Shown here one piece after another: positions 6,989-41,643 of a DNA stretch of 64,000 nt. The stretch comes from Dictyostelium discoideum (lineage: Eukaryota). Location of the stretch: NCBI GenBank assembly GCA_000004695.1, contig CM000151.3, forward strand, positions 7,552,001-7,616,000, written 5' to 3'. The first letter of the stretch is position 1; each line of letters opens with the position of its first letter. The translations under genes and the position numbers were made by a program. The notes beneath the pieces are model-generated. The model had not been told where the DNA came from, searched no databases, and saw only the letters and a program-made list of their open reading frames with translations.

Positions 6989-7646
6989 CTTTATTATTTT
7001 ATTATTTTTTTAATTTATTATTTTTTTAATTATTTTTTTTCGATTTTATTATTGTGTATATATATAAATATAGATATGATTTTTAAGTATGATGTAGAAA
7101 ACAATCTATTATGATTATATTTGGTTACAACAACAACAATAACAACAACAACAACAACAATAACAACAATAACAGACAACCAACCAAAATTATTCCAACT
7201 ATCTTTTGCAAAACAAAATCTGAAAACAAAAATTGAAAAAAAAAAATAAAAAATAAAAAATAAAAAAAAAATAAAAAAAAAAAAAATAAAAATTAATTTT
7301 TTTTTTTTAATTTTTTATTTTTCAAATTTAGGTTAAATTTAAATACACCAAGATACAAATAAAAACCCCTTAGAATCAGAAAAAAAATAAAAAATAAATA
7401 AAATAAAATAAAAATTAAATAAAAAATAAAAAGCGCGCGTGGATTCATTTAAATGAATAATTAAATATTTTTTTTTTTCTTATTAATATTTCACTTTCAT
7501 ACGATCATTACACTACCAATTATATACATAAAATTTATTTATTTAACTTTAATTATAAAATACAATAAAATACAAAAAAAAATAATTCAAATAAATAAAA
7601 ATAAATAAATAAAAGAAGAAAAAGAAAAAGAAAAAGAAAAAGAAAG

Positions 7647-7688
<42 letters not shown>

Positions 7689-11742: not shown

Positions 11743-12057
11743 GTAGTTATAATAATAATAAATAAAAATTTATAAACTTAATTTCTGTTTTTTTTTATCT
11801 TTTTTATTCAACAGATTAATTTCATAAATTTTTTTTATTTTTTTTTTTTTATTTCATTTTTTTTATAATTCTTTCATTTTTTTTTATTTATTATTATTTA
11901 TTATTTAATAAAATAATAAACTAATAATAATATCCTTTTAAAAAAAAAAATAGATAATCAAAATAAAATCAATAAAAATAGCCACGAGGCATCAATTATT
12001 TTAACAGAGTTTGAATTAATTGAATTAAATACTGAAAAGATAGAAAATAATAAAAAT

Positions 12058-18418: not shown

Positions 18419-18839
18419 TTTTTTTTTTTTATTTATTTTTTATATTGTATATTATGTATATGAGTGTGAATTATTATTATTTTTATTATTATTATTTTTA
18501 TATTTGAGGAGGAAAATTTATTTTAAAAAATATGTATATATATATTTAAAGATAGAAAATTATTTAATATGTGAGTGAATTATTATTATTGTACAGATGA
18601 GGCGCTAAGAAAAAAAAAAAAATATTTATATGAAAATTTTTGAACTTGATGGTAATTGAAAAAAAAAATTTTTGAAAATTTTAAAACTTAAGGGAAAAAA
18701 AAAAAAAAAAATTAGTATGTTTAATATTTAAATGAAAATAAAAATAAAAATAAAAAAAAAAAAAAAAACAAAACATATATTAAAAAAAAAAAAATTAAAA
18801 AAAAAAAAAAATTAAAAAAAAAAAAAAAAAAAATTAAAA

Positions 18840-18873
<34 letters not shown>

Positions 18874-19130
18874 AGTTACACAACGACCGGTGTTCTTTAA
18901 CTTCTTATCTAGATCTTGTTTTATTTTGTGTTTGTTTACCTGTCGCAGTTGCACAACAAAAATTTTAAAAAAATAAAACAAAAAAGGATACGAATATATA
19001 AAAAAATAAAAAAAAAATAAAAAAAAAAAAAAAAAAAAAAAAAAAATAATATAAAATTAAAAATAAAAAAATAAACCTTACAGTTTAGAGGAAAAAAAAA
19101 AAAAAAAAAAAGATATATTCTTGTATATTT

Positions 19131-20014: not shown

Positions 20015-20575
20015 AATAAAAAAAATAAAAATTTTAAAAAAAAAAAAAAAAAAAAAAAAATAAAAATCGATATGAATGTCTTTTTAAAGGAAATCTTTCC
20101 AAACTAATTATAGTTTTTAAGATTATCCAATTTTTTTAATTTTTTAACTTGTGTTGGGTAATATGGAAAAATTAAAAATTAATTTAAAAAAAATTTTGTA
20201 AATTGTATATCTTTATTTTTCAATATCACAATATATTGAATTCTTTGAAATTTTTTATCATTATTTTTTTTTTTTAATTATTTTTGTTTTTCAGATTTCA
20301 TTTATTTTTCAACTGTTTTTCATTTATTTTTGCAATGATAATTAATGCAATTTAATTTAAAAAAATGGCAAAGATCCTTAAAATCTTTGTGTGGTGATCT
20401 AATTCCCATATCACTTAAAGAATAAAAATATTTTCAAAATGAAAAAAAAAATTAATATAAATAGATTTTTTTATTTTTTTTATTCATAATAAACATAAAC
20501 AAATAAACACTTAACATAAAGAAAAATATTACAAAATTAATAAATTAAAAAATTTATAAATAATAAAAATTAAAA

Positions 20576-21755: not shown

Positions 21756-22079
21756 TAAATTTTCATTTATATTTCAATTGTTTTTCATTTATTTTCACAA
21801 AGTTGTTCAGTGGAAGTTAAGTTATAAAATAACAATGATTCATAAAATCTTCGTGTAAAAAAATTTTTCATGTAATTTCCTTGTCATGGGGATTCATAAC
21901 TTTAAGGAGTAAAAAAAAAAAAAAAAAAAAAAATAAATAGTTTAAAAAACTTTTTTTTTTTTTCATTAAAACAAAAACAAAAATAAAAATTAAATTAAAT
22001 AAATAATAAATAAATAAACAAATAAAAAATCAAACAAATATATAAAAAAATAAAAAAATAAAAAAATAAAAAATTAAAA

Positions 22080-22712
22080 ATGGCAACAATCTTTGATATT
22101 TTAAATACTCTTAATAATAATAATAATAATAATAATTTTGAAAATTGTAAAAGACAATGTCCAATTAATAAAAGCAATAAAACGATTATTGATAAACTAC
22201 CACCAATGGATGTAACAATGACAAATGATAAATTAATCATTGAAACAGAGTTAGCAGGTATTTCAAAAGATCATATTGAAATTGATATTAAAGATTCAAT
22301 ACTCACTATTCAAGGTGAAAAGAAAAAGAATTTAAATAAACAACAACAACAATTAGTTATTGAAAAATCAACATCATCATCAACATTAGATAGCAAAGAA
22401 GATGAGCCATCGATTGAAGAGTTTGAAGATGATATTAAACCAAAATCAAAATCTGACAATACAACTGTATCTACTACAACCACCGCCACCACTAAAGAGA
22501 ACAAAGAAGATGAAAATAAAACAAAATCAACTGATAAAAAGTTTATTTCAGAAAGATCATTTGGTAATTTTAAAAGATATTTAGATTTAACAAAAATTTT
22601 ATATCAATTAGATTTAAATTCAATCAATACTCAATTTGAAAATGGTTTATTAACAATTACAATCAATAAGAAATTACATTATTCAAATACAATTAAAATT
22701 AATATAAATTAA
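22080..22712 (+). CDS. Small heat-shock protein (hspG-like), array copy B
   Basis: More than 90% identical to copy A; same alpha-crystallin motifs. Confidence 0.8.
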
Positions 22713-22867
22713 CTCCACTTTTATTTTCCCTTCTTTATAATTCTGAAAGTACATGTACATAATAGTAATAGTAATAATAATATTTTAATAATAAAATTAA
22801 TAAAATAAAAAAAAATAAAAAAACATTTAATTTAATTTTTCTTCTTCTTTTTCTTTTTTTTTTTTAT

Positions 22868-23150
22868 TTAATATTTAATTTTTAATATTAATTGTATTTT
22901 TTGATACTATCATTGCCCAAAATATTTCATTTATCGAAAATTCTATTTATATCTATTAAATATGCATCAGATTTTGATAAAGGAACAATATTATCATCAT
23001 TTGATATTATTGAATTTAATTTAGAAATTATTTTGTAATTAATTAATTAATATTATCAATTTTAAGAAATAATATATATATTTTTAAATAATTAATTATT
23101 ACATTTCATTTAAAAAATGATGATTTATAATCACCTCATTTAAATTTATT
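22868..23150 (-). pseudogene. Remnant of the GNAT acetyltransferase gene (internal deletion derivative) between sHSP copies B and C
   Basis: Contains fragments homologous to 25130-25290 ('...cccaaaatatttcatttat[c/t]gaaaattc...atatgcatcagattttgataaaggaacaatatta...') and to the exon-1 end ('attacatttcattt[g]aaaaatgatgattta'). The intervening sequence is missing. Confidence 0.6.
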
Positions 23151-23436
23151 TATTTTATTTTATTTTATTTTTATTTTTTTTAAAATCTATTTTTTATATG
23201 AAATATTATCCCTCTTGTTCTTTAAAATAAAAAAAAAAAAAATTATTAAAAATGATTATAAATAATTAAATTCTAAAAATAAAATTTTGGTAAAAAAAAA
23301 AAAAAAAAAAATTCAGAAAACAGAATTATCACATTCATTTTTTTATATTTTATATCATTTTGTGTATTTTTGAGTGTTCTATTGTTATATACTAAATTCA
23401 TAATAAAAATAAATAAAAATAAATAATTGTTTGAAA

Positions 23437-23467
<31 letters not shown>

Positions 23468-23594
23468 TTTATTAAGGACATTCCAATTGTTTTTTATCCA
23501 TAAAAAATTATTGGTCAGAATAATAAAAAGTTTATATTCCCACCATTATGAGGTATTCAAGTTTTAAAACCTAACTTAATTTTCTTTTTTTATT

Positions 23595-23637
<43 letters not shown>

Positions 23638-23657
23638 TTTTTTTTTTTTAAAATTTT

Positions 23658-23966
23658 CATTAAATTTTCATTTATTTTCTAATTGTTTTTCTTTTACTTT
23701 CACAATGTTTTTCAGTGGAAGTTAAGTTATAAAATAACAATGATTCATAAAATGTTCGTGTAAAATAATTTTTTGAGAATAACTTCCATGTAATGGTGAT
23801 TCATAACTTTAAGAATAAAAATATTTTTCAAAATGAAAAAAAAAAAATAATATAAATAGTTTAAAAACCTTTCTTTTTTTCTTCATTAAAACAAAAACAA
23901 ATAAAACAAAAACAAATAAAAATTAAATAAATAAATAAATAAATATAAAAAAAAAAACTTTTAAAA
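23658..23966 (+). promoter_or_regulatory. Conserved upstream module of the sHSP array genes, about 200 bp, with a TATAAATAG box about 110 bp before the ATG; also present at about 21763-22079, 26578-26925, 29590-29913, 33003-33240 and 35920-36266
   Basis: A near-identical block ('ttcatttattttctaattgtttttcatttactttcacaatgtttttcagtggaagttaagttataaaataacaatgattcataaaatgttcgtgtaaaataatttt..gagaataacttccatgtaatggtgattcataactttaagaataaaaatattttcaaaatgaaaaaaaaa..taatataaatag') recurs before every copy. It contains degenerate nTTCnnGAAn-like heat-shock-element motifs such as cTTTaaGAAt and TTCaaaatGAA. Confidence 0.5.
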
Positions 23967-24590
23967 ATGGCAACAATCTTTGATATTTTAAATACTCTTA
24001 ATAATAATAATTTTGAAAATTGTAAAAGACAATGTTCAACCAATAAAAGCAATAAAACAATTATTGATATACTACCACCAATGGATGTAACAATGACAAA
24101 TGATAAACTAATCATTGAAACAGAGTTAGCAGGTATTTCAAAAGATCAAATTGAAATTGACATTAAAGATTCAATACTCACCATTCAAGGTGAAAAGAAA
24201 AAGAATTTAAATAAACAACAACAACAATTAGTTATTGAAAAATCATCAACATCACCATCATCATCAACATTAGATAGCAAAGAAAACGGACCATCAATTG
24301 AAGAGTTTGAAGATGATATTAAGCCAAAATCAACCACCAGTACTACAACTGTATCTACAGCCACCACCACAAAAGAGAATAAAGAAGATGAAAATAAAAC
24401 AAAATCAAGTGATAAAAAGTTTATTTCAGAAAGATCATTTGGTAATTTTAAAAGATATTTAGATTTAACAAAAGTTTTATATCAATTAGATTTAAATTCA
24501 ATCAATACTCAATTTGAAAATGGTTTATTAACAATTACAATCAATAAGAAATTACATTACTCAAATACAATTAAAATTAATATAAATTAA
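23967..24590 (+). CDS. Small heat-shock protein (hspG-like), array copy C
   Basis: Intact 207-aa ORF with alpha-crystallin motifs. Confidence 0.8.
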
Positions 24591-24789
24591 CCAGTGGTCA
24601 CCTTCTTTATAATTCTGAAAATACATGTACATAATAAATAATAAATAGTAATAAATAATAATAATAATAATAAAATAAATACTTTTTTTGTAAATTGTTT
24701 AAAATATTTAATTTTAATTTTTTTTTTTTTTTTTTTATTTATTTATTTTTTTTTTTTTTTTTGTTTTATTTAATATTTAATATATAAAG

Positions 24790-25421
24790 TTAATTTTTAT
24801 TTTTTGAAATAATCATAGTTGTTACAGAATAGGAATATTTAAAACCTAATTTTTCAACGAGAGAATTTGATATTGTATTATCATACACAGTTGAACATAA
24901 AGGTATAATATTATTTTCAATTGATGATAATGTTAATTTTGCTTTAACTTTTAATGCAATACCTTTACATCTAAATTCTGGCAATGTGTATAAATTTGAT
25001 GATTTTCCATCAGATTTAATATAATTCCAACAAACTAAATTATTACTATTATTAATTTTCTTTTCGTCATTTTCATCAACTATTATATTGACTTTATTAT
25101 TACTAGTAGTTTTATAACCAAATGCTAAACCATTTTCAATTGCCCAAAATATTTCATTTATTGAAAATTCCGTTTTATATCTATAATTGTCATTTATAAA
25201 ATATGCATCTGATTTTGATAAAGGAACAATATTATTATCATTTGAAATTATTGAATTTAATTTAGAAATTATTTTGATTTTATTTTCCATATCATTAATA
25301 TCTATAATAAAATGATTATAAAAAGGAACTGTTTTAATTTTAAATCCACATTCTTGGAAAAATTCTTCAATGAATTTAACTAAAATTGGATTTTCAATAT
25401 CTCCAAAATAAAAAGTATTAC

Positions 25422-25455
<34 letters not shown>

Positions 25456-25904
25456 AAGAGAATTAATAAATATAAAAATACAATAGTTATCTATTTTTAG
25501 AAATAATATACATATATTGTTAATAATTATTACATTTCATTTGAAAAATGATGATTTAAAATTGCATCATTTAAATTTGTTTTTTTTAATAGTTCCTCCA
25601 TTTCAATAGCATTTATACTATTGAAATATCCTTTTTCCCAATCAATTGATTTAATTACATTTTTAACGATTTCAAAATCTAAATTTTCATTATTTAATGT
25701 AAATAATTTTATAAAATTTGTAATTAATGATATTGATACTATTACACTCGGTGAATCATAATTATCTGTAAAATATTCATATAATCCAATTTTAGTTTGG
25801 TTTTCAATAAAATCAAATTGAGGAAATCCTTTTGTTTTTTTGAAAAAACTTTTGTCTTTTATGTGTATTAGTATTGATTTTTTATTATTTTCTTTTATTA
25901 ACAT
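24790..25904 (-). CDS. GNAT-family N-acetyltransferase-like protein, array copy 1: complement(join(24790..25420,25534..25904)), about 333 aa
   Basis: Exon 1 gives MLIKENNKKS...NHHFSNE, with donor GTAATAA at 25533. The acceptor TTATAG ends at 25421. Phase-2 splice AT|T continues to NTFYFGDIENPILVKFIEEFFQECGF... and then a C-terminal GNAT-like core: LYTLPEFRCKGIALKVKAKLTLSSIENNIIPLCSTVYDNTISNSLVEKLGFKY. Confidence 0.6.
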
Positions 25905-26372
25905 TTTTATTTATTTTTTAAAAACTACATAAACCCTCTAAATAATAATAATAAAAAAAAAAAAAAAAAAAAAAACAAATTTAAAAAAAAAATAAACAAA
26001 TAAAAAAAAAAAACAAATAAATTAAAAAAAAAAAAAAAAATTTAAAAAAAAAAAAAAGTAAAAGTGTGTTGAATAATTTCTTTTTTAATTTCATGATAAA
26101 CAGTTATTACTATTCAATTTATTTAAATACATGTTTGTTATAATTATTTTTTTAATTGTTTTCTAAAAATTATATTACACTTCAAACACAACAAAAATTA
26201 TGTTGAGAAAAGTAGGTGGATGCGGACATGACCGCTTCTGTTTAATTAAAAAAATTATTATTATATTATTATTATTTTCTAAAAATTTTATATTTTATAT
26301 GATTTTGTGTATTTTTGAGTGTTCTATTGTAATTAACTAAATTCATAATAAAAATAAATAAAATTAAATATT

Positions 26373-26411
<39 letters not shown>

Positions 26412-26925
26412 TTAAGTAATTATTAAGGACAATCCAATTGTTTTTTATCCATAAAAAATTATTGGTCAGAGTAATAAAAAAAGTTTATATTCCCATTATC
26501 ATGAGATATTCAAGTTTTACAACCTTATTTTCCTTTTTTTATTTCATTTTTTTTTTTTTTTTATTTTTTTTAAAAATTTCATTAAATTTTCATTTATTTT
26601 CTAATTGTTTTTCATTTACTTTCACAATGTTTTTCAGTGGAAGTTAAGTTATAAAATGACAATGATTCATAAAATGTTTGTGTAAAATAAATTTTGAGAA
26701 TAACTTCCATGTAATGGTGATTCATAACTTTAAGAATAAAAATATTTTCAAAATGAAAAAAAAAAAAATAATATAAATAGTTTAAAAATCTTTCTTTTTT
26801 CTTCATTAAAACAAAAACAAAAACAAATAAAAATTAAATAAATAAATAAGTAAATAAATAAATAAATTAAATAGTAACTAAATTAATTATTATTAAATAA
26901 ATATATAAAAAAAAAACTTTTAAAA

Positions 26926-27561
26926 ATGGCAACAATCTTTGATATTTTAAATACTCTTAATAATAATAATAATAATAATTTTGAAAATTGTAAAAGACAA
27001 TGCTCAACCAATAAAAGCAATAAGACAATTATTGATATACTACCACCAATGGATGTAACAATGACAAATGATAAACTAATCATTGAAACAGAGTTAGCAG
27101 GTATTTCAAAAGATCATATTGAAATTGACATTAAAGATTCAATACTCACTATTCAAGGTGAAAAGAAAAAGAATTTAAATAAACAACAACAACAATTAGT
27201 TATTGAAAAATCATCAACATCACCATCATCATCAACATTAGATAGCAAAGAAGATGAACCATCAATTGAAGAGTTTGAAGATGATATTAAACCAAAATCA
27301 ACCACCAGTACTACAACTGTATCTACTACCACCACCGCCACTAAAGAGAATAAAGAAGATGAAAATAAAACAAAACCAACTGATAAAAAGTTTATTTCAG
27401 AAAGATCATTTGGTAATTTTAAAAGATATTTAGATTTAACAAAAGTTTTATATCAATTAGATTTAAATTCAATCAATACTCAATTTGAAAATGGTTTATT
27501 AACAATTACAATCAATAAGAAATTACATTATCCAAATCCAATTAAAATTAATATAAATTAA
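26926..27561 (+). CDS. Small heat-shock protein (hspG-like), array copy D
   Basis: Intact 211-aa ORF. Confidence 0.8.
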
Positions 27562-27759
27562 CCAGTGGTCGCCTTCTTTATAATTGCGAAAATACATGTA
27601 CATAATAAATAATAAATAATAATAAATAATAATAAAAAAAAAAAAAAAAAAAAAAAATAATAAATACTTCTTTGTAAATTCTTTTAATAAAAAAAAAAAA
27701 AAATATTTAATTTTATTTTTATTTTTAATTTTTTTTTTTTTTTTTGTTTTATTTTATAT

Positions 27760-28877
27760 TTAATATATAAAGTTAATTTTATTTTTTGAAATAATCATTG
27801 TTGTTACAGAATAGGAATATTTAAAACCTAATTTTTCAATAAGAGAATTTGATGGTGTATTATCATATGCTACCGAACATAAAGGTATAATATTATTTTC
27901 AATTGATGATAATGTTAATTTTGCTTTAACTTTTAATAATACCTTTACATCTAAACTCTGGTAATGTGTGTAAATTTGATGATTTTCCATCAGATTTAAT
28001 ATAATTCCAGCAAACTAAATTATTACTATTATTAATTTTCTTTTCTTCATTTTCGTCAACAACTATATTGACTCCATTATTATTTTTATTATTATTATTA
28101 TTATCATTATTAATTTTATAACCAAATGCTAAACCATTTTCAATTGCCCAAAATATTTCATTTATTGAAAATTCTGTTTTATATTTATAATTGTCATTTA
28201 TAAAATATGCATCTGATTTTGATAAAGGAACAATATTATCATCATTTGAAATTATTGAATTTAATTTAGAAATTATTTTGATTTTATTATCTATATCATT
28301 AATATCAATAATAAAATGATTATAAAAAGGAACTGTTTTTATTTCAAACCCACATTCATGGAAATATTCTTCAATGAATTTTACTAATATTGGGTTTTCA
28401 ATATCTCCAAAATAAAAAGTGTCTCTAAAAAAAAAAAAAAATAATTCATAGAATTAATAAATATAAAAATACAATAGTTATCTATTTTGTGTTAATAATA
28501 ATTACATTTCATTTGAAAAATGATGATTTAAAATCGCATTTATTTGATTTGTCTTTTTTAATAGTTCATCCATTTCAATAGAATTCATACTATTGAAATA
28601 TCATTTTTTCCAATCAATTGATTTAATTACATTTTTAACGATTTCAAAATCTAAATTTTCATTATTTAATGTAAATAATTTTATAAAATTTGTAATTAAT
28701 GATATTGATACTATTACACTTGGTGAATCATAATTATCTGTAAAAAATTCATATAATCCAATTTTAATTTGGTTTTCAAATAATATCAAATTGAGGAAAT
28801 CCTTTTGTTTTTTTGAAAAAACTTTTGTCTTTTATATGTATTAATATTGATTTTTTATTATTTTCTTTTACTAACAT
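27760..28877 (-). pseudogene. GNAT acetyltransferase-like gene, array copy 2, disrupted
   Basis: Homologous along its full length to copy 1, but exon 1 has a 1-nt insertion ('gatattatttgaaaacc' versus 'gattttattgaaaacc') that introduces TGA. Only short ORFs remain (27760..27990 and 28601..28789). Confidence 0.6.
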
Positions 28878-29348
28878 ATTTATTTATTTATAAGCTCAAA
28901 AACCCACTAAATAATAACACCAAAAAAAAAAAAATAAAAAATAAATTAAAAAAAAAAATAAACAAATAAAAAAAAAAAAATTAAAAAAAAAAAAAAAGTA
29001 AAAGTGTGTTCTATAATTTCTTTTTTAATTTCATGAAAACAGTAAATACTGTTCAATTTATTTAAATACATATTTGTTATAATTATTTTTAAATTGTTTT
29101 CTAAAAATTTTATTAAACTATTTTTTTTTTAAATCTATTTTTTAATATAAAATGTATTCCCTTTAATTATTCTTCAAAATAAAAAAAATAATTATAAAAA
29201 ATGAATGATTCTAACTTAAAAAAAAAAAAAAAAAAAAAAAAACAGAATGATTAAATTCAATTTTTTTATATTTTATAAGACCTTGTGTAATCTGGAGCGT
29301 TCTATGTTTATATACTAAATTCATATTAAAAATAAATAAAATTAAATC

Positions 29349-29380
<32 letters not shown>

Positions 29381-29913
29381 TTAAAGTGTCAAATTAAATA
29401 TTTATCAAGGATGTATCACTTTTTTTTTATCATAAAAAATTATTGAAGAGTTATAAAAAAAGTTCATATTCCCATTATGAGGGATTCAAGTTTTAAAGTT
29501 ATAAGAAAAGTTTATATTCCCATTATGAGGTATTCAAGTTTTACATAACCCATTTTCCTATTTAATTTTTTTTTTTTTTTTAAAAAATTTCATTTATTTT
29601 TCAATTATTTTTCATTTATTTTCACAATGTTTTTCAGTGGAAGTTAAGTTATAAAATAATAATTATTCATAAAATGTTCGTGTAAAATAATTTTTTGCGA
29701 ATGACTTCCATGTAATGGTGATTCACAATTTTAGGAATAAAAATATTTTCAAAATGAAAAAAAAATAATATAAATAGTTTAAAAATCTTTCTTTTTTTAA
29801 AACAAAAACAAAAACAAAAACAAAAACAAAAACAAAAACAAAAACAAATAAAAAAGTAAACAAAAAATAAAATTAATTATTATTAAATAAATAAAAAAAA
29901 AAAAATTTTAAAA

Positions 29914-30519
29914 ATGGCAACAATCTTTGATATTTTAAATACTCTTAATAATAATAATTTTAAAAATTGTAAAAGACAATGTCCAATTAATAAAAGCAAT
30001 AAAACAATTATTGATATAATACCATCAATGGATGTAACAATGACAAATGATAAACTAATCATTGAAACAGAGTTAGCAGGTATTTCAAAAGATGATATTG
30101 AAATTGACATTAAAGATTCAATACTCACTATTCAAGGTGAAAAGAAAAAGAATTTAAATAAACAACAACAACAATTAGTTAGTGAAAAATCATCAACATC
30201 ACCATCAACATTAGATAGCAAAGAAGATGAACCATCAATTGAAGAGTTTGAAGATGACATTAAACCAAAATCAGCCACCAGTACTACAACCACCACCACT
30301 AAAGAGAACAAAGATGATGAAAATAAAACAAAATCAAGTGATAAAAAGTTTATTTCAGAAAGATCATTTGGTAATTTTAAAAGATATTTAGATTTAACAA
30401 AAGTTTTATATCAATTAGATTTAAATTCAATCAATACTCAATTTGAAAATGGTTTATTAACAATTACAATCAATAAGAAATTACATTACTCAAATACAAT
30501 TAAAATTAATATAAATTAA
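29914..30519 (+). CDS. Small heat-shock protein (hspG-like), array copy E
   Basis: Intact 201-aa ORF. Confidence 0.8.
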
Positions 30520-30701
30520 CCAGTGGTCACCTTTATTTTCCTATTCTTTACAATTCTGAAAATACATGTACATAATAAATAATAATATATTTAATAAAAA
30601 ATAATAAATACTTTTTTGTAAATACTTTAAAATAAAAAAAAAAGCATTTAATTTAACATTTCTTTTTTCCTTTTTTTTATTGTTTTATTTATTTAATATT
30701 A

Positions 30702-31828
30702 TTATTCAAAATTAATTTTATTTTTTGATATTACCATTACTGCCATAGAATAGGAATATTTAAAACCTAATTTTTCAATAAGAGAAATTGAATTTATATT
30801 ATCATGTGATGTTGAACATAATGGTATAATATTATTTTCAATTGATGATAATGTTAATTTTGCTTTTACTTTTAATGCAACACCTTTACATCTAAATTCT
30901 GGTAACGTGTATAAATTTGATGATTTTCCATCAGATTTAATAAAATTCCAACAAACTAAATCATTACTATTTTTAACTTTCTTTTCTTTTTCATCATTTT
31001 CATCAAAAACTATATTGACTTTATTATTATTTTTATTTTTATTATTATAATTATTATTATTATTATAATTATTAATTTTATAACCAAATGCTAAACCATT
31101 TTCAATTGCCCAAAATATTTCATTTATTGAAAATTCCGTTTTATATTTATAATTGTCATTTATAAAATATGCATCAGATTTTGATAAAGGAACAATATTA
31201 TTATCATTTGAAATTATTGAATTTAATTTAGAAATTATTTTGATTTTATTATCTATATTATTGATATCAATAATATAATGATTAAAAGGAAATGTTTTAA
31301 CTTCAAATCCACATTCTTGGAAATATTTTTCAATGAATTTAACTAAAATTGGATTTTCAATATCTCCAAAATAAAAAGTATTACTAAATAAATAAATTAA
31401 AAAAGGAAAAAAGAAATTATTAGTTTTGAAATAATATGTATAAAAATTAATTATTACATTTCATTTGAAAAATGATGATTTAAAATTGCATCATTTAAAT
31501 TTGTTTTTTTTAATAGTTCCTCCATTTCAATAGCATTAAAACTATTGAAATATCCTTCTTTCCAATCAATTGATTTAATTACATTTTTAACGATTTCAAA
31601 ATCTAAATTTTCATTATTTAATGTAAATAATTTTATAAAATTTGTAATTAATGATATTGATACTATTACACTCGGTGAATCATAATTATCTGTAAAAAAT
31701 TCATATAATCCAATTTTAATTTGATTTTCAATAAAATCAAATTGAGGAAATCCTTTTGTTTTTTTGAAAAAACTTTTATCTTTTATATGTATTAATATTG
31801 ATTTTTTATTATTTTCTTTTAATAACAT
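30702..31828 (-). CDS. GNAT acetyltransferase-like gene, array copy 3: complement(join(30702..31383,31458..31828))
   Basis: Exon 1 (ORF 31454..31828) is intact. Donor GTAATAA at 31457 and acceptor TTATTTAG ending at 31384. Exon 2 is open to TAA at 30702-30704 and is absent from the ORF track only because it has no internal Met. Confidence 0.55.
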
Positions 31829-32574
31829 ATTTATTTTATTTATTTATTTATTTATTTATTTATTAATTTATTTTTATTTATTTGTTAATTAATAGGGATA
31901 AAATTAAAAATGAAAATAATATTTTTTTTTAATAAATTACTCTATAAAAAATCAACCTTAAATTTAAATGATAACCAATGTTTTTTAAATTAATATAAAA
32001 AAAATTAATTTAAAAACATTAAATATTATTAAATTTTATTAATAATAAAACACGAAAAATACTAATAATTAATAAAACTAATAAAAGAATTATTTATAAA
32101 TTACCACCAATGATTGAAACCGAATTGATAATTTTCTTTTTTAAACATTTTTATGGAGATAAAAAAAAAAATAAAAAAAAAAAAAAAAATAAAAAAAAAA
32201 TATAAAAAAAACAGATATAAAATAGAACAAATAAGAAAAAAAAAAATTAATTAATTAATTAAAATAATGAAAAAGTGTTTTTAAAAAAATGACAAAGTGT
32301 TTTTGTTTTAATTATGATAAATTAATATTATTTTAGATATATTTTTTTTATTTTTTTAATTTCAATTTAAATTACAAATCATACATTATATTGTTCATCA
32401 GTTGAATTTTCTTACATAATTGCATAAACATCTTGCATAAATAATTAAAAATAAATAAAAAAACAAAAAGTGTACACATTGTGATTTTAAATTTTAAATC
32501 TTTATTTAATTTTATTTTATTTTATTTTATTTATTTTTTTCTTTAATTATTAAAAGTTTATCCAATTAGGATAG

Positions 32575-32690
32575 AATTAAAAATTGCAGGCCGAATTGTT
32601 TCGGACTGCGTTGTGGAATAGTTTGCAAAAAGCACTAACAGTGGATCCCTTATCGGTCACGCCCTACTGCTTTGGTCCCAGCGTAAAGAC
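32575..32690 (-). ncRNA. Candidate small non-coding RNA gene: a GC-rich island of about 110 nt in AT-rich intergenic DNA, with a DUSE-like upstream element
   Basis: The plus strand has ggccgaattgtttcggactgcgttgtgg...ggatcccttatcggtcacgccctactgctttggtcccagcg. On the minus strand the motif TTGCCCATAAC (plus 32745-32755) lies about 60 bp upstream of the island. The minus-strand transcript would end ...GGCCTGCAATTTTT (a T-run). It contains the local hairpin CCGAA-TTGT-TTCGG. Confidence 0.3.
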
Positions 32691-33240
32691 AAAATAAAAA
32701 AATCCTTCTAAATCTTAATAAATATTATCATTTGTTAATATTATTGTTATGGGCAATTTCCCTATAATAAAATTTTCAATAATTGAATTATTTACAACAA
32801 TAGGAACAATATTAATTAAAGGGTTATATAAAAATAAAAAATTCTAAAGTAAATTTTTAAAAAAAAAAAAAATAAAAAAAAAAAATAAAAATTTTTCAAA
32901 AAGTTTATTTATTTTTATTAAAAATAAAATTATATTTGAACCTAAAGTTGAAGTACAAGTTGGTTTTGAAATTTAACTAAAAAAAAAAAAAAAAAAATGT
33001 TTGTGATTATTCAATTGTTTTTCATTTACTTACGCAATGTTTTCCAGTGGAAGTTTAGCTATAAAATAACAATGGTTCATTAAATCTTCGTGTAAAATAA
33101 TTTTTTGTGAATAACTTCGATGTAATGGTGATTGAAAATGAAAAAAAAAAATAACATAAATAGTTTTTTTTTTTTTTTTGATTAAAACAAAAACAAATAA
33201 ATAAATAAATAAATTAATAAATTGATAAATTAATCAGAAA

Positions 33241-33882
33241 ATGGCAACAATCTTTGATATTTTAAATACTCATAATAATAATAATAATTTTGAAAATTGT
33301 AAAAGACAATGCTCAACCAATAAAAGCAATAAAACGATAATTGATATACTACCATCAATGGATGTAACAATGACAAATGATAAACTAATCATTGAAACAG
33401 AGTTAGCAGGTATTTCAAAAGATCATATTGAAATTGACATTAAAGATTCAATACTCACTATTTAAGGTGAAAAGAAAAAGAATTTAAATAAACAACAACA
33501 ACAACAACAACAACAAAAACAATTAGTTATTGAAAAATCAACATCATCAACAACATCATTAGATAGAAAAGAAGATGAAGCATCAATTGAAGAGTTTGAA
33601 GATGATATTAAACCAAAATCAAAATCTGATAATACAACTGTATCTACAGCCACCACCACCACTAAAGAGAACAAAGAAGACGAAAATAAAACAAAATCAA
33701 CTGATAAAAAGTTTATTTCAGAAAGATCATTTGGTAATTTTAAAAGATATTTAGATTTAACAAAAATTTTATATCAATTAGATTTAAATTCAATCAATAC
33801 TCAATTTGAAAATGGTTTATTAACAATTACAATCAATAAGAAATTACATTATTCAAATACAATTAAAATTAATATAAATTAA
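33241..33882 (+). pseudogene. Small heat-shock protein (hspG-like), array copy F, with an in-frame nonsense codon
   Basis: It is in frame throughout with the other copies, except TAA at 33463-33465 (ILTI*GEKK, where others have CAA/Gln). The rest, ...[16 protein letters not shown]...ININ*, is intact in the same frame. Confidence 0.7.
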
Positions 33883-34048
33883 CCAGTGACCACCTTTATT
33901 TTCCCTTCTCTATAATGTTAAATATTAAATAAAACAATAAAAAATAAAAAAAAGGAAAAAGAAATATTAAATTAAATATTTTTTTTTTTATTTAAAGTAT
34001 TTATTATTTTATTTTTGAATATATTGTGTGTTATTATTATTATTATTA

Positions 34049-34106
<58 letters not shown>

Positions 34107-34124
34107 CTAAATGTATTTTCACAA

Positions 34125-35242
34125 TTAAAAATTAATTTTATTTTTTGATATTACCATTACTGCTATAGAATAGGAATATTTAAAACCTAATTTTTCAATG
34201 AGAGAATTTGATTTAGTATTGTCATGTGCTGTTGAACATAGTGGTATAATATTATTTTCAATTGATGATAATGTTAATTTTGCTTTAACTTTTAATGCAA
34301 TACCTTTACATCTAAACTCTGGTAATGTAAATAAATTTGATGATTTTCCATCAGATTTAATAAAATTCCAACAAACTAAATTATTATTATTATAATAATT
34401 ATTAATATTGTTTTCATCATTTTCATCAACAACTCTATTGACTTTATTATTGTTATTATTATTAATTTTATAACCAAAAGCTAAACCATTTTCAATTGCC
34501 CAAAGTAATTCATTTATTGAAAATTCCGTTTTGTATCTATAATTGTCATCTATATAATATGCATCAGATTTTGATAAAGGAACAATATTATCATCATCTG
34601 AAATTATAGAATTTAATTTAGAAATTACTTTGGTTTTATTGTCAATATCATTAATATCAATAATATAATGATTAAAAGGAAATTTTTTAACTTCAAATCC
34701 ACATTCTTGGAAATATTCTTCAATGAATTTAACTAAAATTGGGTTTTCAATATCTCCAAAATAAAAAGTATTACTAAAAAAAAAAAAAAAAGGAAAAAAA
34801 AAAAAAATATACTTTATTAGTTTTGAAATAATATATATATATATATATTGCTAATTAAAATTAATTATTACATTTCATTTGAAAAATGATGATTTAAAAT
34901 TGCATCATTTAAATTTGTTTTTTTTAATAGTTCCTCCATTTCAATAGCATTTATACTATTTAAATATCCTTTTTCCCAATCAATTGATTTAATTACATTT
35001 TTAACGATTTTAAAATCTAGATTTTCATTATTTAATGTAAATAATTTTATAAAATTTGTAATTAATGATATTGATACTATTACACTCGGTGAATCATAAT
35101 TATCTGTAAAATATTCATATAATCCAATTTTAGTTTGGTTTTCAATAAAATCAAATTGAGGAAATCCTTTTGTTTTTTTGAAAAAACTTTTATCTTTTAT
35201 AGGTATTAATATTGATTTTTTATGATTTTCTTTTAATAACAT
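34125..35242 (-). CDS. GNAT acetyltransferase-like gene, array copy 4: complement(join(34125..34773,~34872..35242))
   Basis: Exon 1 ORF 34868..35242 is intact. The same GTAATAA donor and TTTTTTAG acceptor are present. Exon 2 is open to TAA at 34125-34127. Confidence 0.55.
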
Positions 35243-36145
35243 TTTTATTTATTTATAAATAGGAATAAAATTAAAAAAATGAATAAGTGTTTTTTTTCTT
35301 TATTATAATTTTATATGTTTTATATTTATTTTTTTTTTTTTCAATTTTTTTTTTAATTTCATTATTGTTAATTTGGTCTTCTAACTTAAATGTATAAACA
35401 TATCATTTTTTTTATATTTTTTTTTATTTTTTTTATTTATTTTTAGGGGGGTGGGGTGGTGTGGTAGGTCACATGTTTCACCAAAAATCATTTAAATTAA
35501 AAATTAAAGGTGTTTTAAATATAAAAAAAGGTTAAAAAATGCAGGATTTACTTTTTTTATATTTAGATTTATTTTAATTTTACAATCAAAATAAAATTAC
35601 GTTTTAATTTAACAGTTACCTTTTAAAAAATTAATATAAAAGACCCAAAATAACACTTAATCAATTAGTGAACAGAAAATGTTTTTAGGCAGTTGAAAGT
35701 TAATAATTTTTGTGGTGGTAATGATGGATAATCAGAATGCACCAAAATTATTTTTTATATTTTAATGTATTTCAATCCGATGAGAAAAATTTAAATAAAA
35801 ATTAAAAAAAAAAAAAAAAGTTATTTTTAGTGTTTAGTCTCTTTTTTTTTTTTTTTTTAAATTTTATTTCCAGATTTTTTACCCCTTTTTATTTTTTTTA
35901 TTTTTTTCAAAAATTTCATTTAATTTCCAATTATTTTTCATTTATTCCTACAATGTTTTTCAGTGGAAGTTAAGTTATAAAATAGCAATGATTCATAAAA
36001 TGTTCGTGTAAAATAATTATTGTGAATGACTCCCATGTAATGGTGATTCACAACTTTAAGAATAAAAATATTTTCAAAATGAAAAAAAAATAATATAAAT
36101 AGTTTGAAAACCTTTCTTTTTTTTTTTCATTAAATCAAAAACAAA

Positions 36146-36197
<52 letters not shown>

Positions 36198-36266
36198 AGA
36201 TTAATAAATAAATAAATAAATAAATAATAAATTAATAAATTAATAAATTGATAAATTAATCAGAAA

Positions 36267-36516
36267 ATGGCAACAATCTTTGATATTTTAAATACTCTTA
36301 ATAATAATAATTTTGAAAATTGTAAAAGACAATGCTCAACCAATAAAAGCAATAAAACAATTATTGATATACTACCACCAATGGATGTAACAATTACAAA
36401 TGATAAACTAATCATTGAAACAGAGTTAGCAGGTATTTCAAAAGATCAAATTGAAATTGACATTAAAGATTCAATACTCACTATTCAAGGTGAAAGAAAA
36501 GATTTAAATAAACAAC

Positions 36517-36554
<38 letters not shown>

Positions 36555-36916
36555 TTAGTTATAGAAAAATCAACATCAACATCATCAACTTTTAGATAGA
36601 AAAGAAGATGAAGCATCAATTGAAGAAGTTTGAAGATGATATTAAACCAAAATCAAAATCTGACAACAGAACTGTATCTACTACAACCACCGCTACTAAA
36701 GAGAATAAAGAAGATGAAAATAAAACAAAATCAAGTGATAAAAAGTTTATTTCAGAAAGATCATTTGGTAATTTTAAAAGATATTTAGATTTAACAAAAG
36801 TTTTATATCAATTAGATTTATATTCAATCAATACTCAATTTGAAAATGGTTTATTAACAATTACAATCAATAAGAAATTACATTATTCAAATACAATTAA
36901 AATTAATATAAATTAA
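36267..36916 (+). pseudogene. Small heat-shock protein (hspG-like), array copy G, frameshifted
   Basis: Split into ORFs 36267..36599 and 36608..36916. Indels relative to the other copies include a 'tcaacatcaacatcatcaactttt' insertion and 'gaagaagtttg' with an extra 'a'. Confidence 0.7.
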
Positions 36917-37218: not shown

Positions 37219-39516
37219 TTATTTGTTAATTTTTTTTAACTTGTTTAAAAGAACACTTTCACCTTTTTTACGATAAATTAAAAAACCAATTGCACCAATT
37301 GCGGAAACACCAACAACACTTGCAACTACAGCGACTGGGATAACATAACTTTTTCTTCCATCTTTTGAATTACCACATTCATTTTTAAATTCTGGACTAA
37401 TTAAGACTGAGAAATCTGGATCAATGATACAAGATTCAATGCAATGTGGTAAATCTAATGAAATTGAAATTGAATCCTTACTTTCATTTTTCATTGAAGT
37501 TAATAAATATGTTGGTCTTCCGTCTGAAACTAACTTGTTTATAAATCTTCCTTCTAAAATTTTATTATTTTTTGAAATTTTAATATAATTGAAAGTAGAT
37601 TCACCATCTTTATTATTGATTGTATTAATTGATGTATCCATTTCATTACATTCATTATCATCTGAATTTATTTGATCTACTGATGAAACTAATTCTAATT
37701 TTAAAGTATTTAAGTTATTTTTGTATGAATAGTTATAAATTCCAATACTAAATTTAATTGAACCATATTGTAAATTAAATGTTTCATCTGCAAATGTATA
37801 TTCTTTACCATTTCTGTTTGTAATTTCTTCAATCTTTGAAATAATTGAGCAATTGCTTTGAATTGTTTGAGATAATGTGTAAATAATTTCATTTTTGCTG
37901 TTTGTTGAATTTGTTGTCCAATTGTTTCGAAGAGAATATGTTGCTACTATATTACCATTAAAATCAATTTCGTATAATGATTTGAAAAAGATTTGGAATT
38001 GAACTTCTTGATTTGAAATTGTTGTATTACCAGTACCTGGATCGACACCAGTATCAGTTGGTGGGTTTCCGTTATTACCTCCATCGCTATCGCTATTGCT
38101 TCCTCCGTTATTACCTCCGCCTGGATTAATGATACCACTACAATCTGCACCATTGAATCCATTATTACATTTACATTGACCATTTAAAGTATTGCATGTA
38201 CCTTGATTTGAACATTTATTTGGACATGTTTGGTTATTAATATTTAAATATTGATATTTATCATAAGAGTATGTAATGTTATTTTGAGTTACAACTACAA
38301 GCTTTACACCAAAACCTGGAGGTGCTGTACAATTTAAAACTGTTGTTGAATTATATAGTAATGGACATGGTAAATTTCCAATTGTGATTGATAGATTATT
38401 ATGAGTATCACCAAAGAAGCCAATAAAGCTTGCAACACCACCATTGGTTGTTGAAGGTATTGTTGAAGTTATATAATGGTATGGTATTAAACAAGTTGGA
38501 CCTGACCAAGAATTTTCTTTACAATTGCATTCACCTTTAGTTGTGTCACATACACCATTTGAATTACAATCTAGTGGATCACACTCAATAAATAATATTG
38601 AACAATCACTACCTCGATGAGATGAATCACAAATACATTCACCTATGGTAGTATTGCAATAACCATTACCTGAACAATCTGGAACTGAACATTCAATACC
38701 TAAGCAATCACTACCTATAAATCCTGGTAAACATTTACAAGTACCTGAACTTAAATCGCAAATTGAATTAACTCCAACTGATGTTGAACAATCATTTGGA
38801 CAAACTTGATTATTATCGAAATTTGATTCGATCTTAATATATGCTTTTACATTGAATGAATCTTTTTCAATTGAAATTATTTGTAATGGAATTGTTGAAT
38901 TTGAAATTGGTAATTGTTTACCACTTTCCATTGTACATTGTGCTCCGAAAAAGTCACTACTTGTAATTGTTGAACAATTACCTACATTTTGAATTTGAAC
39001 TTGTTGATTTGTAAATCCTAAATAACTTGAAAAATGTGTACCACTTACTTGAATTTCATTACCTGTGCTTTTAATTAAAACTGATTTTATAATTGGTGGA
39101 ATATTATAATTTGTTGGGAATGTATATGTAACATTATTTGGAGTTGTGAATAAAACTGGAAAATATTCAACATTTTTCAAATTATTATTAGCTCCTACCA
39201 TTGTTGCTGTATAATTTTTACCATTTTGATTAATAACATATGTTGTTGGATCTAATGAAATTGTTAAATTAATTTTCCATAATGTTACATCGAATCCAAT
39301 ATCATTACCAGTTACCATTACTTTATTAAATATACCATCATTAATTAATTCTACTTTTGGTCTAAATGTTGTGCATGGTGTATTTGTATTAAAGTTTGAA
39401 AACTTATTACTAGCAAATCTTGAAAACATTGATTTTTGTGTTAATTTTGAATAACTATTTACTGTTGTTACATTAAAATAACATGCAAAACAAGATGGAA
39501 CTAATCTGAATATTTG

Positions 39517-39583
<67 letters not shown>

Positions 39584-41090: not shown

Positions 41091-41643
41091 TTTATTTGTT
41101 ATATAATGAAACGAATTAAAAAAAAAAAAAAAATCAAAAAATTTAGAAAGAAACTTGCTGAAAATGTTCATTGTTTTTTTTTCTTTTTTTTTTAAAAAAT
41201 ATCTGAAAAAATCTCCTATGTTGACGTTTTGTGTATTTTTTTTTTTTTTTTTTTCTCTGAAACAAATTGTTATTTTTTTTTTTTTTTTTAAAAACCATGT
41301 GTTTTTATTAAAGTTTTTTTTTTTTTTTTTTTTTTTTAGATATTTTCTAAAAATATCTTTTTTTTTTGACGATTTTGTTTCTGATAAGGGTGATTGGATG
41401 TACAAAAAATTTAAGCATTAAATTGGTGAAAAGTAATTTTATGTGGCTCTGGTGGGTTTGTCGCCTTTTTTTTTTTTTTTACTTTTATTTTTTTATTTTC
41501 TATGAGACTACCCTTAATTAGTTTCTGATCAGGACCTTTTTTTTAAGACACGTATTAATTATAAACATCAAACTACAAATAGGGTTTTTTATTATATATA
41601 AAAAAAAATTGATGAGAAAATTAAAAAATTGTTGAAATTTTAT

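Follow-up and report, generated by a model that had tools for sequence, protein, structure and literature searches.

The tandem sHSP genes on chromosome 2 of Dictyostelium discoideum are each preceded by a closely similar stretch of non-coding DNA, which raises the question of what this stretch is and whether it acts through heat-shock elements (HSEs) bound by heat-shock factor (HSF). The first-pass annotation of the locus had answered that an almost identical block of about 200 bp, containing HSE-like motifs, stands before every sHSP copy.

The hspG cluster and its repeated module

The DNA analysed here (the window) is a 64-kb stretch of chromosome 2 of strain AX4 with seven tandem hspG genes, namely hspG5-9, the products of which contain the Pfam HSP20 domain, and two disrupted copies. 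The gene of copy F (starting at 33241) is interrupted by an in-frame stop at codon 75, that of copy G (starting at 36267) by a frameshift near codon 108, so that two of the seven sHSP genes are disrupted in this sequence. The seven units, each comprising a promoter module and a gene, follow one another head to tail 1.5-3.4 kb apart, the arrangement of a tandem segmental duplication. A GNAT gene was co-duplicated in units C-F, hspG7 and hspG8 share 96% identity even at synonymous sites, and the syntenic locus of D. firmibasis is single-copy.

A profile made from the module gave exactly seven strong nhmmer matches in the window, each just 5′ of an sHSP ATG (129-178 bits for copies B-G), and no match elsewhere in the 64 kb. 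The 41-mer CAGTGGAAGTTAAGTTATAAAATAACAATGATTCATAAAAT, quoted in the annotation, was matched five times with at most two mismatches (at 21808, 23713, 26635, 29635 and 35961) and not once in shuffled sequence. The annotated block, about 200-235 bp long, is thus borne out before all seven sHSP copies, two of which (F and G) belong to disrupted genes. Copy A had been singled out as diverged, and the alignment and motif table agree: it retains block I as well as the proximal part and TATA box, and has lost the CCATGTAATGG palindrome together with both TGAWTCA sites. Copy B has an A-run in place of the proximal segment. Neither TGAWTCA site is left in copy F, where the first unit of block I and about 38 bp 5′ of the TATA box are also missing.

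From 5′ to 3′, the module consists of a poly(dT) tract, block I, a variable spacer, block II, block III, an A-run, ATATAAATAG, a T-run and CATTAAAA (Table 1). Block I holds four TTC(A) units with a consensus spacing of 11-11-10 bp. The TATA box ATATAAATAG is exact in copies A, C, D, E and G and reads AAATAAATAG in B and ACATAAATAG in F; (A/C)ATAAATAG is found on the coding strand in 7/7 copies, with 79-166 bp between the end of the TATA box and the ATG, and is invariant across 18 modules from four species. Kimmel and Firtel are said to have described the Dictyostelium core promoter as a TATAAA(T/A)A box, an oligo(dT) stretch and a cap site. The module has the same layout: after TATAAATAG comes an oligo(dT) run and then, about 25-40 bp downstream of the TATA box, a conserved CATTAAAA, from which an AT-rich leader of some 45-130 nt extends to the ATG; its 3′ part is an ordinary member of this class, with nothing unusual. 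By analogy with this layout, transcription probably starts at CATTAAAA. The description of the block as a conserved upstream promoter module with a TATA box, repeated with each copy, is supported.

Table 1. Module copies and their elements in the 64-kb window
Feature	Position	Strand	Remarks
Module copy A	20292..20500	+	Promoter of hspG5, ATG 20576; nhmmer 99 bits, alignments
Module copy B	21758..21979	+	Promoter of hspG6, ATG 22080
Module copy C (reference copy)	23663..23899	+	Promoter of hspG7, ATG 23967; nhmmer 178 bits
Module copy D	26585..26819	+	Promoter of hspG8, ATG 26926
Module copy E	29586..29815	+	Promoter of hspG9, ATG 29914
Module copy F	33000..33195	+	Before disrupted sHSP copy at 33241
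Module copy G	35911..36143	+	Module itself intact; before frameshifted sHSP copy at 36267
Poly(dT) tracts bounding the module on its 5′ side (copy C)	23599..23649	+	Between-unit homology stops here
Block I (copy C), helically phased TTC(A) units, terminal TTTCACAATG	23654..23707	+
Variable spacer TTTTTCAGTGGAAGTTAAGTTATAAAAT	23708..23734	+	Species-specific; 0.39 identity to D. firmibasis
Block II AACAATGATTCATAAAATGTTCGTGTAAAATAAT	23735..23768	+	Holds ATGATTCAT palindrome and TTCGTGTAA
TGATTCAT within ATGATTCAT palindrome, block II	23741-23748	+
TTCGTGTAA, block II	23755-23763	+	TTCGTGGAA instead in hspG12 and other species
Block III: CCATGTAATGG palindrome (23786-23796) adjoining second TGATTCAT (23797-23804)	23786..23804	+
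TATA box ATATAAATAG (copy C)	23850..23859	+
TATA boxes, copies A, B, D, E	20455-20464, 21931-21940, 26771-26780, 29768-29777	+
TATA boxes, copies F, G	33154-33163, 36093-36102	+
Oligo(dT) run and CTTCATTAAAA, probable transcription start region	23874..23891	+	About 25-40 bp past TATA; conserved in four species

Heat-shock elements and expression background

The HSE-like part of the annotation, namely several degenerate inverted nGAAn/nTTCn pairs in each block, did not hold. Neither GAAnnTTC nor TTCnnGAA occurs in any of the seven modules (shuffle expectation, 0.17-0.31 per module), and the 25 such dimers in the window all lie outside them. The best three-unit HSE scores of the window modules, 6-8 of 9, equal those of dinucleotide shuffles (P 0.14-1.0), and no perfect-, gap- or step-type HSE was found 5′ of any window copy. 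At the level of the family, a perfect three-unit HSE was absent from 28 sHSP promoters and from the whole of the 190 kb searched, and there was no enrichment of HSE dimers (8/28 sHSP promoters versus 10/45 control promoters, P=0.58) or of scores of at least 8/9 (7/28 versus 8/45, P=0.55). The annotation had proposed a comparison of alternating GAA/TTC triplets with shuffled AT-rich sequence. GAA plus TTC triplets are in mild excess in copies C-G (13-15 versus about 10 in shuffles; P 0.005-0.04). In-register inverted pairs are absent, however, and with scores at shuffle level the HSE reading fails that very comparison at the sequence level. The cis-element put forward there is incorrect or, at most, a non-canonical one.

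The module shares some features with classical heat-shock promoters such as those of Drosophila hsp70 and hsp26 and yeast SSA1 and HSP26. It stands 5′ of chaperone genes of a heat-inducible family, is compact and TATA-containing with regulatory sites within about 200 bp, and belongs to a family co-regulated with Hsp70, DnaJ and ubiquitin genes. In the classical promoters, however, an HSF trimer occupies contiguous inverted nGAAn units 5 bp apart, whereas the modules are without any in-register GAAnnTTC pair and their GAA/TTC triplets are direct repeats about 10-11 bp apart. Closer counterparts are the discontinuous yeast HSEs, of which the step type is nTTCn(5)nTTCn(5)nTTCn and the gap type nTTCnnGAAn(5)nGAAn. 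Like block I, these contain nTTCn units repeated in the same direction at intervals of about one helical turn, and the last block-I interval is exactly 10 bp; unlike them, block I uses an extended pentamer, TTTCA, and closes with a specific TTTTCAC(A). Only three arrays, all in other species, qualify as gap- or step-type: D. dimigraforme copy 2 (gap-type, GAAATTTCGTTTATTTTC), the D. purpureum L008 intergenic region (gap-type) and the D. citrinum remnant module (step-type, TTC-n7-TTC-n7-TTC).

Published heat induction is limited to hspG1 and hspG2, which were induced at 30 °C by RT-PCR (PMC6584373). The genes hspG3-8 and hspG12 are co-regulated with hspE-1 and dnaja1 (Hsp70, DnaJ) and with ubiquitin genes, and hspG5, the gene behind the diverged copy A for which the annotation had considered a different regulation, with other hspG genes in a cln5- data set (PMC9686302). 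No transcription start, factor-binding or reporter data for these promoters were found in the literature searched. The heat induction of hspG1/2 together with this co-regulation makes stress regulation of the module-bearing hspG genes plausible, and the window copies themselves would presumably be heat-inducible.

Conservation and family signatures

Among units C-F, identity is 0.74-0.89 within the module, an island amid a 5′UTR, 3′ flank and remaining intergenic DNA of 0.16-0.55, to be read with the seven window copies not being independent of one another; the intron of the co-duplicated GNAT gene reaches 0.74-0.90. The module also occurs at the syntenic clusters of D. citrinum (six copies and a remnant), D. 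dimigraforme (five) and D. firmibasis (one) and at the unlinked hspG12, with E values of 1e-20 to 1e-53 over these other loci. Relative to D. firmibasis, block II is 0.91 and the TATA-Inr segment 0.92 identical, compared with 0.77-0.84 at synonymous third positions and 0.39 in the spacer. Synonymous divergence from the sister species is modest, so that the cross-species similarity is partly plain shared ancestry. Block I has no indel in about 45 bp across four species. Since the blocks are conserved and the spacer is not, the module is probably under selection and not merely recently copied. Blocks II and III are missing from the functional-looking hspG5, Dcit_2, Dcit_3 and Ddim_1, indicating that these two blocks are dispensable for gene retention. 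A similar degree of conservation was seen in the adjacent zf-A20/AN1 promoter.

The family signatures of the sHSP promoters are phased TTTCA pairs and TGAnTCAT, not the HSE. TTTCA-N5-6-TTTCA was found in 21/28 sHSP promoters versus 1/45 controls (P=2e-11) and in four of eight more independent promoters (P=0.001), and three of the nine 'background' matches sit 5′ of additional sHSP sequences (two genes and a remnant). The five triple TTTCA arrays of the window all lie inside modules (expected 0.02). The 11-11-10 TTC spacing recurs, around different filler, in hspG1, the protein of which is 48% identical, and hspG4 shows 11-10; in D. purpureum the phased motif is weak (1/5 promoters by the strict pattern).

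TGAnTCAT was present in 16/28 sHSP promoters and in 0/45 controls. One or two TGA-N-TCA palindromes are found in B, C, D, E, G and most orthologs, and the 9-bp form ATGAnTCAT, present once or twice per module, is that of AP-1/GCN4 bZIP sites (ATGA[C/G]TCAT). As in such sites, the palindrome survives a flip of the centre base: the second site, in block III, switches from TGATTCAT to TGAATCAT in D. citrinum and D. firmibasis with palindromy kept. D. purpureum has TGACTCAT, the canonical form, in one sHSP promoter, and also GTGATTCAT. AP-1/GCN4-type bZIPs prefer C/G at the centre, whereas this base is T/A in all D. discoideum, D. citrinum and D. firmibasis copies and C only in D. purpureum L009. 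We know of no Dictyostelium bZIP that binds the ATGAnTCAT palindrome.

Candidate explanations and a proposed promoter architecture

We consider it probable (roughly 0.7) that the block serves the hspG5-hspG12 subfamily as its RNA polymerase II promoter, copied with each tandem duplication, kept by purifying selection and lacking a classical HSE. This reading builds on direct observations: how many modules there are and where they lie, their conservation over species and at unlinked paralogs, the lack of HSEs, and the enrichment of phased TTTCA and of TGAnTCAT in sHSP promoters. Recent tandem duplication and gene conversion alone, leaving no sequence-specific regulatory function beyond the TATA box, would suit the youth of the copies, best seen in hspG7 and hspG8, and a GNAT intron that is equally similar between units. 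It is nonetheless the least probable of the explanations weighed here, because the module is kept at the unlinked hspG12 and in three other species, the blocks are conserved above the synonymous rate with an internal spacer down to 0.39, block I is indel-free though it lies in T-rich DNA, and the distant hspG1 has matching unit spacing. Block I could also be structural, its phased T-tracts producing bent or nucleosome-free DNA that keeps the TATA box accessible, with specificity from blocks II and III only. T4-T6 runs do recur every ~10.7 bp beside a poly(dT) tract of 16-36 nt, and the filler between TTTCA units varies freely while staying T/A-rich; but within each TTTCA the C and the A are (nearly) invariant, as is the terminal CAC(A), neither of which bending alone needs, and copies without blocks II and III retain block I, which makes this account improbable. 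A STAT-type factor on a GAS-like TTC-N3-GAA element of block II is highly improbable. STATc would be the candidate owing to its activation by stress, heat included, as reportedly described by Araki et al. in 2003. TTC(G/A)TGGAA is present in hspG12, D. firmibasis, four of six D. citrinum copies and two of the four D. dimigraforme copies first scanned, and hspG1 has TTCTTTGAA; but the window copies read TTCGTGTAA or TTTGTGTAA/TTTGTGTGG, so that the GAA half-site is lost and no full TTC-N3-GAA remains, the motif is frequent in this genome, with 25 sites in the window, and the STATc regulon paper does not mention hsp genes in its main text. In favour of a STAT, hspG genes were less strongly down-regulated during infection in dstA and dstC knockouts, according to a 2026 preprint (10.64898/2026.06.09.729547).

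Two further explanations involve HSF itself. The one given in the annotation, in which HSF trimers bind degenerate inverted pairs across the module as classical HSEs, is very unlikely: it draws on the mild triplet enrichment in copies C-G and on the genes being sHSPs from a heat-inducible family, and it has against it the lack of dimers in the modules, three-unit matches at shuffle level, an unenriched family, and the location of the GAA of CAGTGGAAG in the non-conserved spacer. It is possible, though we think it doubtful, that block I is instead a discontinuous step- or gap-like HSE with HSF subunits on direct nTTCn repeats along one DNA face, in which case classical heat induction would arise without contiguous inverted repeats. 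The genes hspG1, hspG3/4 and hspG5-12 share only the TTTCA pentamers and their spacing, not the filler, the last block-I interval is always 10 bp, as in the step-type register, and the three gap- or step-type arrays of other species point the same way, as do the heat inducibility and chaperone co-regulation of the family; heat-induced sHSP genes of other eukaryotes are usually direct HSF targets. On the other hand, the conserved 11-bp intervals fall outside the 5-bp HSE register, a spacing of 11-11-10 leaves at most two units in register, no window copy qualifies as a perfect, gap-type or step-type HSE, and the first block-I unit has lost its G in all AX4 cluster copies (AAATTTC). HSE dimers are unenriched in the family, and Drosophila and yeast HSE studies show a preference for A before GAA, where TGAAA has T.

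For the preferred reading, a polymerase II promoter without a classical HSE, the following architecture can be proposed. The 3′ part is a standard Dictyostelium core promoter made up of the A-run, TATAAATAG, the oligo(dT) run and the CATTAAAA start region, and the 5′ ~170 bp would be an upstream activating region of three conserved blocks. In block I, the four TTTCA pentamers, set 11-11-10 bp apart and closed by the terminal TTTTCAC(A), lie on one DNA face owing to their spacing of about one helical turn, and may serve as a cooperative binding platform for an oligomeric activator. The two ATGA-W-TCAT palindromes in blocks II and III are best read as putative targets of a dimeric, bZIP-like factor, and these blocks also hold the TTCGTG(G/T)AA element and the CCATGTMATGG palindrome. 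The identity of these proteins and their mode of binding are what we infer; jointly, the three blocks would confer shared stress-responsive expression on the seven genes, acting otherwise than by a classical HSE, in which inverted nGAAn units are contiguous.

More tentatively, and at rather less than even odds, block I, a poly(dT)-flanked TTTCA array with fixed 11-11-10 bp spacing and TTTTCAC(A) at its end, may be a previously undescribed dictyostelid sHSP stress/heat-response element, read either by HSF in a register unseen in yeast and animals or by a different oligomeric factor. If this is true, this model organism would control its main inducible sHSP family with no classical HSE involved.

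The sHSP cluster and its repeated upstream module

The window is extremely AT-rich (14–32% G+C), and the sHSP proteins it encodes are identical to those of Dictyostelium discoideum AX4 chromosome 2. Of its seven head-to-tail sHSP genes (copies A–G), the first five are hspG5, hspG6, hspG7, hspG8 and hspG9, in which the Pfam HSP20 domain is present, and copies F and G are disrupted; the module is intact at the disrupted copy G and eroded at the disrupted copy F. The tandem duplication units C–F, of ~3 kb each, contain in addition, on the minus strand, a GNAT/FR47 acetyltransferase gene of two exons; part of its 3′ end survives as a remnant downstream of hspG6 (around 22900-23040), and the gene is single copy in the D. 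citrinum cluster and in the D. dimigraforme cluster. Module F lacks the first block I unit and ~38 bp preceding the TATA box, and a U4 spliceosomal snRNA gene in the spacer separating units E and F is the probable cause of both the greater unit length and the disruption at the 5′ end of this module. The adjacency of the sHSP cluster to ComC-like genes is kept in all four species with a syntenic cluster, and the sHSP genes of one D. purpureum locus (L008) also adjoin a ComC-like gene.

The first-pass annotation had described an almost identical block before every sHSP copy, and this was borne out: the 41-mer quoted there occurs five times at ≤2 mismatches (shuffled sequence, 0), and the alignment of the seven upstream regions revealed a common block that a long poly(dT) tract bounds on the 5′ side and that ends shortly after the TATA box, where the alignment breaks up into a AAATAAAT-type leader of variable length. 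Searched with a profile of the block, the 64 kb gave seven strong matches and no more, one upstream of each sHSP gene, and the divergence ascribed to copy A was evident from its score (99 bits, against 129–178 for the other six copies). Copy C (hspG7) served as the reference for the anatomy of the module. The usual Dictyostelium core promoter comprises a TATA box, an oligo(dT) run and a start region; the module core matches this layout and is an ordinary member of the class. In the module, CATTAAAA, ~30 bp downstream of TATAAATAG, would be the transcription start region. A mobile-element origin of the module was rejected, as it stands solely before sHSP genes with no further copy in the window. 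An Rfam search of 17-38 kb placed no RNA family within the modules, its sole match being the U4 snRNA elsewhere.

Positions of features in the window and in compared loci (L001, D. citrinum; L002, D. dimigraforme; L003, D. firmibasis; L004, hspG4 with its hspG3-like neighbour; L008, D. purpureum); positions without a prefix refer to the window
Feature	Position	Strand	Details
Seven sHSP genes, head-to-tail	starts 20576, 22080, 23967, 26926, 29914, 33241, 36267	+	
Module A	20292-20500	+	profile match, 99 bits
Module B	21758-21979	+	profile match
Module C	23663-23899	+	profile match
Module D	26585-26819	+	profile match
Module E	29586-29815	+	profile match
Module F	33000-33195	+	profile match
Module G	35911-36143	+	profile match
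Poly(dT), copy C	23599-23649		
Block I, copy C	23654-23707		TTC(A) units, consensus spacing 11-11-10 bp, final TTTCACAATG
Species-specific spacer, copy C	23708-23734		
Block II, copy C	23735-23768		AACAATGATTCATAAAATGTTCGTGTAAAATAAT
Block III, copy C	23786-23796, 23797-23804		CCATGTAATGG, directly followed by the second palindrome TGATTCAT
TATA box, copy C	23850-23859		ATATAAATAG, after an A/T-rich proximal stretch
T-run and CTTCATTAAAA, copy C	23874-23891		
hspG7 ATG	23967		
Disrupted sHSP copy F	33241-33882	+	CAA->TAA, in-frame stop at codon 75
Disrupted sHSP copy G	36267-36916	+	frameshift after Asn run near codon 108
GNAT/FR47-like acetyltransferase gene, two exons	24790-25904, 27780-28880, 30720-31830, 34140-35245 (approximate)	-	four co-duplicated copies
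U4 spliceosomal snRNA gene	32559-32690	-	Rfam RF00015, 52 bits, E 2.6e-9
Tandem ComC-like genes	37219-45653	-	EGF/LRR/supersandwich domains; directly downstream of sHSP cluster
~85-nt non-AT-rich element	~18872-18957; L003 ~8426-8512	-; -	between zf-A20/AN1 gene and hspG5
zf-A20/AN1 promoter site GTTCAAAAATTTTCA	18631-18645; L003 ~8175-8195	-; -	TTC-n7-TTC, 8/9 HSE-like; n8 in D. firmibasis
Step-type HSE, TTC-n7-TTC-n7-TTC	L001 ~11835-11865		D. citrinum remnant module
Gap-type HSE GAAATTTCGTTTATTTTC	L002 ~9698-9716		D. dimigraforme copy 2
Gap-type HSE site	L008 ~7640-7660		D. purpureum divergent sHSP intergenic region
hspG3-like paralog	L004 8491-9174		main difference from hspG4: ~28-residue longer polyglutamine run in linker
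Fifth D. dimigraforme sHSP copy	L002 8572		

Heat-shock elements and phased TTTCA units

The module had been proposed to contain inverted nGAAn/nTTCn pairs consistent with heat-shock elements (HSEs), which the scans did not sustain. Neither GAAnnTTC nor TTCnnGAA occurs in the 230 bp up to the TATA box of any of the seven copies, and the best three-unit matches (6–8/9) equal those of dinucleotide-preserving shuffles (P 0.14-1.0). The expected enrichment of GAA/TTC triplets over shuffled sequence held mildly in copies C–G (13–15 versus ~10), but with no inverted pairs; the source of the excess is the direct TTTCA repeats together with TGATTCA. All 25 inverted HSE dimers of the window lie outside the modules, and no perfect, gap-type or step-type HSE was found upstream of any window copy. 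HSE dimers were equally frequent in sHSP promoters of five species (8/28) and in 45 control 'promoters', each the 450-bp stretch preceding a called or inferred ORF (10/45, P=0.58). The classical HSE reading is therefore unsupported, and the assumption fails at the sequence level in scans run without a positive-control HSE from this genome.

Other motifs did show enrichment. The pair TTTCA-N5-6-TTTCA is present in 21/28 sHSP promoters and 1/45 controls, with a P value (2e-11) that overstates independence because many of these promoters share descent; eight more independent promoters, the fairer subset, gave 4/8 (P=0.001). All five triple TTTCA arrays in the window fall within modules (0.02 expected). 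Motif counts covered ~190 kb of dictyostelid sequence, in which three of the nine 'background' pair matches in fact lie upstream of sHSP loci, namely the hspG3-like gene, the fifth D. dimigraforme copy and a D. citrinum remnant. The length of the linker homopolymer (Q/N/T) run varies widely among all hspG copies. The 11-11-10 spacing is common to the hspG5-12 clade and hspG1, whose protein identity is 48% and whose filler between the TTTCA units differs; variants are 11-11-11-10 in hspG12 and 11-10 in hspG4, the final interval being always 10 bp and followed by TTTTCAC(A). TGAnTCAT was found in 16/28 sHSP promoters and 0/45 controls. The second palindrome, TGATTCAT in D. discoideum, corresponds to TGAATCAT in D. 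citrinum and D. firmibasis with the palindrome preserved, and D. purpureum sHSP promoters carry TGACTCAT and GTGATTCAT.

Conservation across species

Among units C–F, module identity is 0.74–0.89, comparable to that of coding sequence, and that of the leader, 3′ flank and remaining intergenic DNA is 0.16–0.55. The paralog comparison alone is indecisive, because the GNAT intron is likewise well conserved between units. The compared loci comprised the syntenic clusters of D. citrinum (six copies plus a remnant), D. dimigraforme (five) and D. firmibasis (one, against seven in D. discoideum), the unlinked hspG12 from a D. discoideum strain other than AX4, hspG4 with its hspG3-like neighbour, hspG1 and three D. 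purpureum loci. The single D. firmibasis gene is flanked, as the cluster in the window is, by zf-A20/AN1 and ComC-like genes (L003 7506-15766, corresponding to window 17897-45653); cluster expansion was therefore later, and in D. discoideum, D. citrinum and D. dimigraforme it is independent or recent.

Profile matches to the module were strong for every cluster ortholog and for hspG12 (E 1e-20 to 1e-53) and weak at hspG4 (E 0.004); at hspG1 and in D. purpureum there was no match (E>1), the likeness there being confined to short motifs. Relative to D. firmibasis, identity in block II (0.91) and from TATA to start (0.92) exceeds that of synonymous third positions (0.77–0.84), with 0.71–0.74 for blocks I and III and 0.39 for the spacer, and the T-rich block I has zero indels across four species. 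Judged from these alignments, the pattern is a footprint, unlike uniform neutral similarity, and settles that conservation extends beyond recent copying; an explanation of the module similarity by duplication only is less likely. The zf-A20/AN1 (stress-associated-protein-like) promoter, in which GTTCAAAAATTTTCA lies directly upstream of the TATA box with a TTC-TTC spacing of n8 in D. firmibasis, is another sequence that D. discoideum and D. firmibasis share, so promoter conservation at this distance is normal. The nearby ~85-nt element has a nearly identical counterpart in D. firmibasis and matches no Rfam family; its ends form a 13-bp stem (AACTGCGACAGGT / ACCGGTCGTTGTGT), a T-run follows, and the element is a candidate gene for a small non-coding RNA.

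Promoter architecture, alternatives and significance

The findings are best explained by a composite stress-responsive promoter that was duplicated with each gene. It would combine a TATA-directed core, TTTCA units in helical phase upstream of it, and one or two ATGA-W-TCAT palindromes as putative sites for a dimeric, bZIP-like factor. On the TTTCA array, by inference, an oligomeric activator would bind cooperatively; ATGATTCAT, like block I, may be a protein-binding sequence of the module. The expression context fits this reading: hspG1/2 are induced at 30 °C (PMC6584373), hspG3-8 and hspG12 co-vary with hspE-1 (Hsp70), dnaja1 and ubiquitin genes (PMC9686302), and HspG genes also respond in dnmA mutants, dst mutants and infection.

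The main named candidate for block I, HSF binding in a non-canonical register, appears rather unlikely. It is favoured by the nTTCn form of the pentamer, by a last interval of 10 bp as in step-type HSEs, and by relatives in which the array is sometimes a true gap-type or step-type HSE; against it stand the conserved intervals of 11 bp, which do not fit the HSE register, and a first unit that lacks its G in every copy of the AX4 cluster. The upstream region has a putative role like that of a heat-shock UAS but lacks every sequence hallmark of an HSE in the window, and its likeness to yeast discontinuous HSEs is only partial. Less likely still than HSF binding are a role of the phased T-tracts of block I in DNA structure alone and a STAT/GAS reading of TTC-N3-GAA in block II. 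The block II element TTC(G/A)TGGAA is kept in hspG12 and other species, and is TTCGTGTAA or worse in every window copy; the STAT/GAS reading was rejected for the window on this G->T change in every copy, and the STATc literature checked offered no hsp link and no binding site.

The hspG promoter can be classed as a stress promoter whose helically phased element is uncharacterised. It has apparently not been dissected before: the searchable literature, incomplete in coverage, yielded no description of an hspG promoter or a phased TTTCA array and nothing relevant on a Dictyostelium HSE, HSF or hspG promoter. In many RNA-seq studies of Dictyostelium, covering heat, infection, and cln5, dnmA and dst mutants, hspG transcripts rank among the strongest responders. 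The outcome here is a delimited module of ~240 bp in which a small number of conserved sites can be tested. Its interest is modest unless the phased element is the target of the heat sensor; if block I is not heat-responsive, the module would be an ordinary promoter duplicated together with its gene. If block I is the heat-responsive element, it would widen the range of heat-shock control architectures and give a model organism with AT-rich DNA a small inducible promoter.
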